Shown here piece by piece: positions 6,967 through 7,843 of a stretch of 24,163 bases of DNA. This DNA comes from a virus (taxonomy: Duplodnaviria > Heunggongvirae > Uroviricota > Caudoviricetes): IMG/VR virus record IMGVR_UViG_2565956616_000001, positions 1 to 24,163 of that record; one strand, given 5' to 3'. Within the stretch, counting starts at the first letter, position 1. Every line of letters begins with the position of its first letter. The notes beneath the pieces are model-generated. The model did no database searches. It was not told the DNA's origin and worked only from the letters and a program-made list of their open reading frames with translations. Both the position numbers and the translations under genes were made by a program.

Positions 6967-7843
6967 GTTAGCTGATTACAGGCATAACCCTGTACAACAT
7001 CAGGAGGCATCCAGTATGGGGTATGTCTCTATACACCGCCAGTTTATGGACAGCAGGCTCTATAAGGACTCTCAGGCAGTACATCTTTGGCTTCACTTAA
7101 TCCTCAAGGCTAATCACGAATCTACTGTCGTCAATACGGATATCGGTCCGATAACTGTTGATCGCGGTCAGATGATAACTGGACGCCCGTCGCTGGTCAG
7201 AGAAACATTCATCCCCGACAACAAAGTTCGGAGCTTATTACGGACTTTTGAGTCGAAAGGGATGCTTAATATTTGCTCGATGGGGAAGAAATTTAGCCTG
7301 TTTACAATCGTTAAATATGACGATTTTCAGGCAAAAAATTGTCCAACGGTTGTCCAACGGTTGTCCAACGCAAACACCAGTAATGGCGCGGCTCTCAGCG
7401 GAGATTGTCCAACGGTTGTCCAACGGTTGTCCATAAACAATAATATAAATAATATCTCTAATACTGACGTATTAGAGAGTGCCACAGCAGACAAAAAGTC
7501 TGACAAGAAAAAACCTTCCGTCAGCTGTCAGGATGTTGTCGATGCTTACCACGAAATCCTTCCTGAAGCGCCAAGAATCCGCGCACTGAATGACAAGCGT
7601 AAAAACCAGATCCGAACGTTCTGGCGCAAAGCCGGAGTGATAACCCGCCAGCTTGACGGGCATGGGTTCACGATGCAGGGCTGGAGAAATTATTTGAGCT
7701 ACGTAGGCGAAAATTGCCGATGGATGTTCGAAGAACGCCCAAACCATCAACGCGGAACCGTCTGGCACAAAAAGGGATTTGATTTCCTGCTTAACGACAA
7801 TACCTACCTGAAAGTTCGTGAGGGTGAACACGATGACCGATAA
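6953..7843 (+). CDS. replication initiation protein (lambda O-like, iteron-containing)
   Basis: AGGAGTG RBS upstream of ATG 6953; position after cII; the gene contains direct repeats encoding repeated CPTVVQRLS peptide units followed by an AT-rich tract, as in lambda O/ori. Confidence 0.8.
   Translation: MGVVKLADYRHNPVQHQEASSMGYVSIHRQFMDSRLYKDSQAVHLWLHLILKANHESTVVNTDIGPITVDRGQMITGRPSLVRETFIPDNKVRSLLRTFESKGMLNICSMGKKFSLFTIVKYDDFQAKNCPTVVQRLSNANTSNGAALSGDCPTVVQRLSINNNINNISNTDVLESATADKKSDKKKPSVSCQDVVDAYHEILPEAPRIRALNDKRKNQIRTFWRKAGVITRQLDGHGFTMQGWRNYLSYVGENCRWMFEERPNHQRGTVWHKKGFDFLLNDNTYLKVREGEHDDR
7339..7437. repeat. origin iterons: two clusters of tandem 11-bp TTGTCCAACGG repeats (7339-7371 and 7405-7437) inside the initiator gene, followed by an AT-rich tract to about 7480
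   Basis: Directly visible: three tandem copies, a 33-bp spacer, then two and a half more copies; the AT-rich tract follows immediately. Confidence 0.8.

Follow-up and report, generated by a model that had tools for sequence, protein, structure and literature searches.

The locus analysed here raises the question of what a tandem array of short direct repeats does inside a protein-coding gene. The window, by which we mean the whole stretch of 24,163 nucleotides that was analysed, is IMG/VR record IMGVR_UViG_2565956616_000001 (Caudoviricetes). The gene in question (6953-7843, plus strand) is an open reading frame (ORF) that matches PHROG 345 and encodes a replication initiator of 296 amino acids, of the type represented by Sf6 gp43, phage L gp18 and HK022 'O'. 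We propose that the repeats and the adjoining AT-rich tract are the theta replication origin of a P22-like (Lederbergvirus-type) lambdoid prophage, placed inside its own initiator gene, and from the sequence comparisons below we put the probability of this reading at roughly 85%. The element is not novel, it has already been annotated in Sf6 and described in phage L, and the discovery value is small, since it follows textbook lambdoid-origin logic. What is added here is a link to the G38P/oriL system of phage SPP1, the co-variation of iterons with the initiator N-domain, the 11-bp period in distant phages, a compensated inverted repeat and a polymorphism in the number of repeat triplets.

Tandem Repeats Finder reports the unit TTGTCCAACGG in two arrays of period 11, both with 100% matches, at 7339-7370 (2.9 copies) and at 7405-7433 (2.6 copies). 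Four copies are exact and start at 7339, 7350, 7405 and 7416. Each array ends in an imperfect unit, TTGTCCAACGC at 7361 (10/11 matches) and TTGTCCAtaaa at 7427 (7/11 matches), the latter merging into the AT-rich tract. Cluster 1 (7339-7371, plus strand) consists of three head-to-tail 11-bp units, two exact and one imperfect, and cluster 2 (7405-7437, plus strand) of two exact units and the truncated third. The spacer between them (7372-7404, plus strand) encodes NANTSNGAALSGD; among relatives its sequence is variable in the alignment and its length constant. Because these 33 bp equal three unit lengths, both clusters lie in one 11-bp register, which holds all six units, and the clusters are spaced 66 bp (6 x 11) from start to start. 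Successive 11-bp units fall in different reading frames, so that a triplet covers all three frames and encodes the peptide CPTVVQRLS, which occurs twice within ORF 6953-7843. A first-pass annotation of this DNA had listed five and a half copies, two clusters 33 bp apart, repeated CPTVVQRLS peptides and a following AT-rich stretch, and all of these are recovered. Simulating the window 1000 times with a first-order Markov model never gave an 11-mer more than two non-overlapping copies within 100 bp, against the four observed. Exact copies of the 11-mer and of its 9-bp core are absent from the remainder of the 24-kb window, and the core was not found elsewhere in the whole Sf6 genome. A hairpin spanning the iterons does not exceed those of shuffled sequences in stability (z -1.57). 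A CAAC-G-GTTG dyad at the unit junctions was considered as a lambda-like dimer site and dropped; phage L (CAACGGATG) and other relatives do not have it.

The AT-rich tract (7434-7480), presumed to be a DNA-unwinding element, comprises 47 bp with 78.7% A+T, compared to 53.5% for the gene, and encodes INNNINNISNT; the lowest-GC 45-bp windows of the gene fall within it. At its right edge lies an inverted repeat, TCTCTAATAC-tgac-GTATTAGAGA (7455-7478), with perfect 10-bp arms (7455-7464 and 7469-7478) around a 4-nt centre. Folded as a DNA hairpin it reaches -9 kcal/mol (z -5.8). Its pairing is maintained in relatives by double-sided changes, from AAT/ATT to CTT/AAG in a Cronobacter phage and to TCT/AGA in a Klebsiella phage, and as a result both arms code for other amino acids. 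Across the alignment 98.4% of cells are paired, a value as high as in none of 500 shuffles. The inverted repeat also matches a simple pattern for a minus-strand terminator, a hairpin followed by a T-rich tail, and the phage L record has a minus-strand terminator annotated just downstream of its rep_origin (L003, 1024-1066), which by our estimate covers the homologue of this inverted repeat.

The same DNA carries an origin annotation in a known phage. The initiator gene is 98.5-99.7% identical to that of many phages, including Huey, mEpX2, HK633, HK106, HK75, IME10 and Sf6. Gene 43 of Sf6 has 99% DNA identity over 891 bp, and the rep_origin of the Sf6 record (28385-28480) corresponds exactly to window positions 7338-7433, with the remark 'putative; repeat region reminiscent of the phage lambda origin; similar to phage HK620'. 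The iteron units of Sf6 and of the window differ by two point changes. The gene is about 84% identical to gene 18 of the Salmonella phages L, ST64T and SE1; in phage L a rep_origin is annotated at the equivalent place, with the TGTCCAACG core and the 3 + 3 layout of six units that we see in the window. The genome paper of phage L names the 11-bp repeat as the likely origin (PMC8022706). Older genetics discussed there found the replication genes of L and P22 exchangeable only as a whole region and puts the origin of L inside the gene 18-12 region (PMC8022706). In core, number, spacing and position within a homologous initiator gene the window array agrees with this intragenic origin type of Sf6 and phage L, which has TGTCCAACGG iterons, and a DnaB-like helicase of the P22-gp12/HK022-P type directly follows the initiator. 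Hence, the replication origin proposed in the first-pass annotation has support from the Sf6 record and from the phage L paper.

The initiator can be divided into an N-domain (about amino acids 1-126; coding part 6953-7330, plus strand), a linker encoded by the origin, and a C-domain (about amino acids 176-296; coding part 7481-7840, plus strand). From alignments and tblastn matches to other phage initiators, the N-domain is presumed to be the iteron-binding part, for which sub-threshold matches hint at a winged-helix-like character, and the C-domain, shared with the initiators of HK022, HK620 and Shiga toxin (Stx) phages, is presumed to recruit the helicase. The match to PHROG 345, labelled 'replication initiation O-like', has an E value of 5.9e-85, and the N-domain also matches PHROGs families labelled 'DnaD-like helicase loader'. 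Neither domain has a Pfam or NCBIfam family above threshold, with a sub-threshold match to DUF7376 only, and a PDB sequence search with the protein gave no match.

Comparison with relatives shows that the layout is kept while the sequences change. The 3 + 3 units of 11 bp, the 66-bp spacing, the AT-rich tract and the inverted repeat are common to four relatives with other sequences. The iteron unit is ATTACCAGCAR in HK022 and RTGCCAACARA in Klebsiella phage ST11-VIM1phi8.1, the units of Erwinia phage vB_EhrS_59 are nearly those of the Klebsiella phage, and Cronobacter phage ENT47670 has a TGTCCAA core; every one of the six aligned units contains an invariant CCA. Because 11 is not divisible by three and the layout is nevertheless kept, selection acts on the DNA and not on a peptide repeat. 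The initiators of HK022, HK620, VT2-Sakai and Stx phages have the same layout and a near-identical C-domain and helicase. DNA homology with HK022, HK620, VT2-Sakai and many Stx phages begins at 7433, right after the last iteron, and with HK022-type phages runs at 97% DNA identity (99% protein) through the C-domain into the helicase gene, whereas to the left of 7433 these phages are unrelated to the window at the DNA level. For HK022 itself the N-domain is 46% identical to that of the window, the C-domain is 99% identical, and the iterons differ, so that another origin specificity sits on the same helicase-recruitment module; thus, the C-domain cannot set iteron specificity. The Cronobacter phage is 80% identical to the window in the N-domain and 53% in the C-domain, and the two have the TGTCCAA core in common. 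The Klebsiella and Erwinia phages have almost identical iterons with 55% identity in the N-domain and 19% in the C-domain. The N-domain and the iterons behave as one exchangeable module. The idea that the iterons define the replication specificity of this phage gains support from these natural domain swaps, in which iterons change with the N-domain and not with the C-domain.

Erwinia phage vB_EhrS_59 (L009, 1138-2088) is a natural chimera, in which an N-domain of this type, 3 + 3 iterons, the AT-rich tract and the inverted repeat are followed by a lambda-O-type C-terminus. A lambda-P-type loader gene follows this chimeric initiator, and among the compared relatives it is the only one with such a loader. 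Because a lambda-O-type C-terminus is paired here with a lambda-P-type loader, the C-domain matches the helicase system. Position ~7433 is a mosaic joint between modules, and recombination between the origin-specificity and the helicase modules may take place at the conserved AT-rich tract and inverted repeat.

A characterised relative of the N-domain is known from Bacillus phage SPP1. A tblastn search with the N-domain finds SPP1 gene 38 with 28% identity (E 3e-7) over 85% of the domain, and also reaches initiators of Staphylococcus, Vibrio, Enterococcus and other phages. The alignment runs over the full length of the domain, with G23, H28, R29, R71 and G72 invariant and an identity to SPP1 G38P of about 28-30%; Pfam Phage_rep_org_N is hit by one alignment member only (E 0.2). 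SPP1 G38P is an origin-binding protein, and oriL lies within gene 38, where G38P binds direct repeats termed 'AB boxes' (PMC5737612, PMC6316719) that adjoin an AT-rich DNA-unwinding element (PMC5737612). Theta replication has been reconstituted in vitro on an oriL fragment of 356 bp (PMC5737612, PMC6316719, PMC5615212). Inside the coordinates of the oriL fragment (PMC5615212) we find an 11-bp unit in 4.6 copies and, next to it, an AT-rich tract (L008, 1857-1946). Arrays with an 11-bp unit are also present in Staphylococcus phage phiSa2wa_st22 (7.9 copies), Vibrio phage 1.085.O (5.3 copies), Enterococcus phage EH-TP1 (3.5 copies) and, weaker at 71% matches, Shewanella phage 3/49 (5.6 copies). 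In these four distant relatives (L016, L017, L018, L010) the arrays lie at gene positions ~320-440, right after the N-domain coding part, and in SPP1 as in the four an AT-rich tract encoding Asn and Asp (NNNDNN-like) follows each array. The window thus resembles SPP1 oriL in having a homologous N-domain and, directly after its coding part in the initiator gene, head-to-tail 11-bp repeats and an AT-rich element. The differences are substantial as well. SPP1 has another unit sequence in a single array instead of 3 + 3, its C-domain belongs to the unrelated Phg_2220_C family and is 16% identical to that of the window, its helicase loader G39P (gene 39) is encoded between initiator and helicase, and it has a second G38P-binding region, oriR, for which neither the window nor the complete Sf6 genome holds a corresponding second iteron cluster. 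One alignment member has Phg_2220_C (E 2e-20), and the window protein does not. Judged by sequence similarity, the nearest characterised homologue of the presumed DNA-binding domain is SPP1 G38P and not lambda O, and the window element belongs to an old and widespread arrangement with one experimentally proven representative.

This changes how the resemblance to lambda should be understood. The coding sequence had been called O-like, and this is correct as far as position and role are concerned: the array lies inside an initiator gene at an analogous place. A likeness in sequence is not found. The window protein has no detectable similarity to lambda O (BLASTP E 4.5), and while lambda O matches Pfam Phage_rep_O (PF04492) with E 5.7e-36, the window protein and seven relatives give no match to this family at E values up to 1. 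Homology of the initiator to lambda O was therefore rejected at the sequence level. The comparison with lambda ori, made with the proviso of a different iteron sequence, holds for the order of elements. In lambda, as in the window, the linker after the N-domain holds iterons, an AT-rich tract and an inverted repeat, in this order, and a C-domain for the helicase system follows. The lambda inverted repeat also lies to the right of the AT-rich region, in parallel to 7455-7478, and the initiator gene comes after cII in the lambdoid gene map. However, lambda has four iterons, annotated as 18 bp each and with internal dyad symmetry, compared to six 11-bp direct units here, and lambda P captures the host DnaB, whereas this phage encodes its own DnaB-like helicase.

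The array also varies in nature. The region is carried by 141 of 5426 complete E. coli genomes, among which one has a three-triplet allele with nine units in a gene of 957 nt (L011, 404-1360) and another a one-triplet allele in a gene of 825 nt (L012, 404-1228). The prophage with the one-triplet allele is apparently complete, and its intein-containing helicase ORF is intact. In a large protein search, in which the 120 top matches listed are close relatives only, many initiators of 318, 296 and 274 amino acids are found, the lengths seen in Escherichia/Shigella, with 299 and 277 in Salmonella; P0001, P0033 and P0097 are examples of this variation. Five sequences that were retrieved show that from one length class to the next a single CPTVVQRLS...SGD unit of 22 amino acids, or 66 bp, is added. 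A comparison of iteron number among related prophages, suggested in the first-pass annotation, hence has an answer: related prophages differ in iteron number, by whole triplets (1, 2 or 3).

Taken as an origin, the element would work as follows. The N-domain of the initiator would bind the six 11-bp iterons in two triplets, which, as the units are spaced one helical turn apart, should lie on one face of the DNA. The resulting nucleoprotein complex would strain and open the adjacent AT-rich tract of ~45 bp, the C-domain would bring in the phage's own DnaB-like helicase, and the helicase would recruit host primase and polymerase. Work by Wickner in 1984 on P22 gene 12 reportedly found that such helicases use host primase without host DnaB or DnaC. 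Several points weigh against this interpretation. Searches of the literature turned up no experiments on this iteron type, be it footprint, origin-plasmid assay or mapping of initiation, and gave only the statement of the phage L paper, which is based on sequence. The winged-helix-like fold of the N-domain is presumed and not established by structure models. AlphaFold2 with the single initiator sequence gave a mean predicted local distance difference test (pLDDT) score of 35.8, and AlphaFold with an 18-sequence alignment (relatives of 71-86% identity) a mean of 47.9; both models are poor overall, with the linker as the part of lowest confidence. Winged-helix families matched below threshold only (HTH_24 with E 0.0028 in one relative, the N-domain of MerB2 with E 0.11). 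Equating the 11-bp units of SPP1 with the published 'AB boxes' rests on their location in the cloned oriL fragment and is accordingly provisional. Finally, apparently complete prophages have one triplet only, so that the 3 + 3 layout may be dispensable or such prophages may replicate poorly.

Among the other explanations, regulation survives best, although we regard it as quite improbable. The repeats would be bound by the initiator mainly for autorepression, as a roadblock, for titration or for handcuffing, and replication would start elsewhere. Binding sites within the initiator's own gene could indeed influence its transcription, SPP1 G38P also binds oriR, a site thought to act after initiation, and variants with one, two and three triplets would fit a tunable regulatory array. 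But neither the window nor the complete Sf6 genome has a second iteron cluster; moreover, the AT-rich tract always comes after the repeats, as it does in the proven oriL, and genetics puts the L origin in the gene 18-12 region.

A purely protein-level explanation is very improbable. It holds that the duplicated CPTVVQRLS serves a flexible linker and that the repeats have no role as DNA. The three units of each triplet are read in three frames, and a peptide repeat cannot yield a period of 11 bp. This period persists in combination with unrelated linkers such as VPADYQQIT, VPTECQQSA and the Lys/Gln-rich linkers of Gram-positive phages. It is true that the 66-bp unit is in frame (22 amino acids), that copy-number variants keep the reading frame and that the linker has the lowest confidence in models that are themselves poor. 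We give equally little credit to the view that the region serves chiefly as a joint for recombination between modules ('boundary sequence'), with the repeats as by-products of unequal crossing-over. The break in homology with HK022, HK620 and Stx phages at 7433, the gains and losses of 66 bp, which show recombination between triplets, and the AT-rich tract and inverted repeat common to otherwise different alleles all agree with a joint. Yet an origin placed between two protein domains would itself predict a joint at 7433, and the co-variation of the unit sequence with the N-domain would be left unexplained, as would the 11-bp array and AT-rich tract kept in Firmicutes phages without DNA similarity. 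Host DnaA boxes, finally, can practically be dismissed: TTGTCCAAC agrees with TTATNCACA at 6/8 specified positions, a partial resemblance only, a scan of the window allowing one mismatch gives 19 sites where 20.1 are expected and hence no enrichment, a single site (7428-7436, minus strand) touches the array, and iterons of the HK022 and Klebsiella types are even less DnaA-box-like.

If the element is the origin, as we favour, the variants raise a further possibility, which we put forward tentatively and consider unlikely, namely that the triplet is a natural tuning unit for origin strength or for the compatibility of co-resident prophages, and that the inverted repeat is a distinct functional site. 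In that case each 66-bp step would have two effects, one in cis on the number of binding sites and one in trans on the linker length of the initiator itself, and the inverted repeat might be, for example, an entry site for the helicase or a site for a host factor. Independent of this, the alleles with one, two and three triplets are a natural series on how many iterons such an origin needs. The origin type would mark the replication specificity of the prophage and so bear on compatibility and recombination among co-resident lambdoid prophages, a question that includes the Stx phages, which have the C-domain and helicase module in common. It also connects enterobacterial 'O-like' initiators of the present kind with the experimentally characterised SPP1 G38P/oriL system rather than with lambda O.

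The genes around the initiator are those of a lambdoid phage. Upstream lie genes for a cI-like repressor (S24 peptidase and helix-turn-helix), a cro-like protein and cII, as assigned by Pfam, and where E. coli genomes match the whole window best, they do so with P22-like prophages that have genes for portal, terminase and a P22-type capsid. The DnaB-like replicative helicase of the P22 gp12/HK022 'P' type (7833-10298, plus strand; Pfam DnaB and DnaB_C) is interrupted by an intein. Its ORF starts (7818/7833) before the initiator gene ends (7843), so that no gene lies between the two, neither a loader of the lambda-P type nor one of the SPP1-G39P type. A 53-amino-acid ORF at 6805-6966 overlaps the start of the initiator gene; an ORF of the same length is annotated there in Sf6 (gene 42, 'HK97 53 protein homolog') and in E. 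coli prophages, and the ORFs at the equivalent position of phage L (P22 orf48), HK022 and the Klebsiella phage are shorter. On the minus strand, at 6721-6748, a strong terminator-like hairpin with a T tail overlaps the 3' end of cII. We take its position to be that of the lambda oop RNA terminator. Context for that terminator is found in PMC3349717.

The most interesting thing in the neighbourhood of the origin is the intein. It comprises 343 amino acids (8502-9530) and is inserted in the Walker-A loop of the helicase, between GARPKMGK and TTLYSQ, with Pfam Hint and LAGLIDADG hints. It begins with Ala and ends with THN|T, and its Trp (DDHLW), Cys (ECICIMV) and Thr (THN) may correspond to the class 3 'WCT' signature, which they resemble. 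None of the 50,697 phage records has the intein, and 18 of the 5426 complete E. coli genomes do; Sf6 gp44 is intein-less, with exteins 99-100% identical to those of the window. For all ten E. coli intein matches listed, the annotated feature is 'none'. At one locus (L014, 7379-9859; NZ_CP054662.1, 3527378-3529843) RefSeq splits the intein-containing helicase into two pseudogene fragments ('missing C-terminus' and 'missing N-terminus') and leaves the intein itself unannotated, while one intact ORF of 826 amino acids spans the region. A different alteration of the two replication genes is seen in a protein from one 42.7-kb contig (P0057, 453 amino acids), where the initiator runs to ...IRTFWRK and continues in frame into an inner segment of the helicase (TAMERYAINR...), apparently through a deletion that joined both replication genes.

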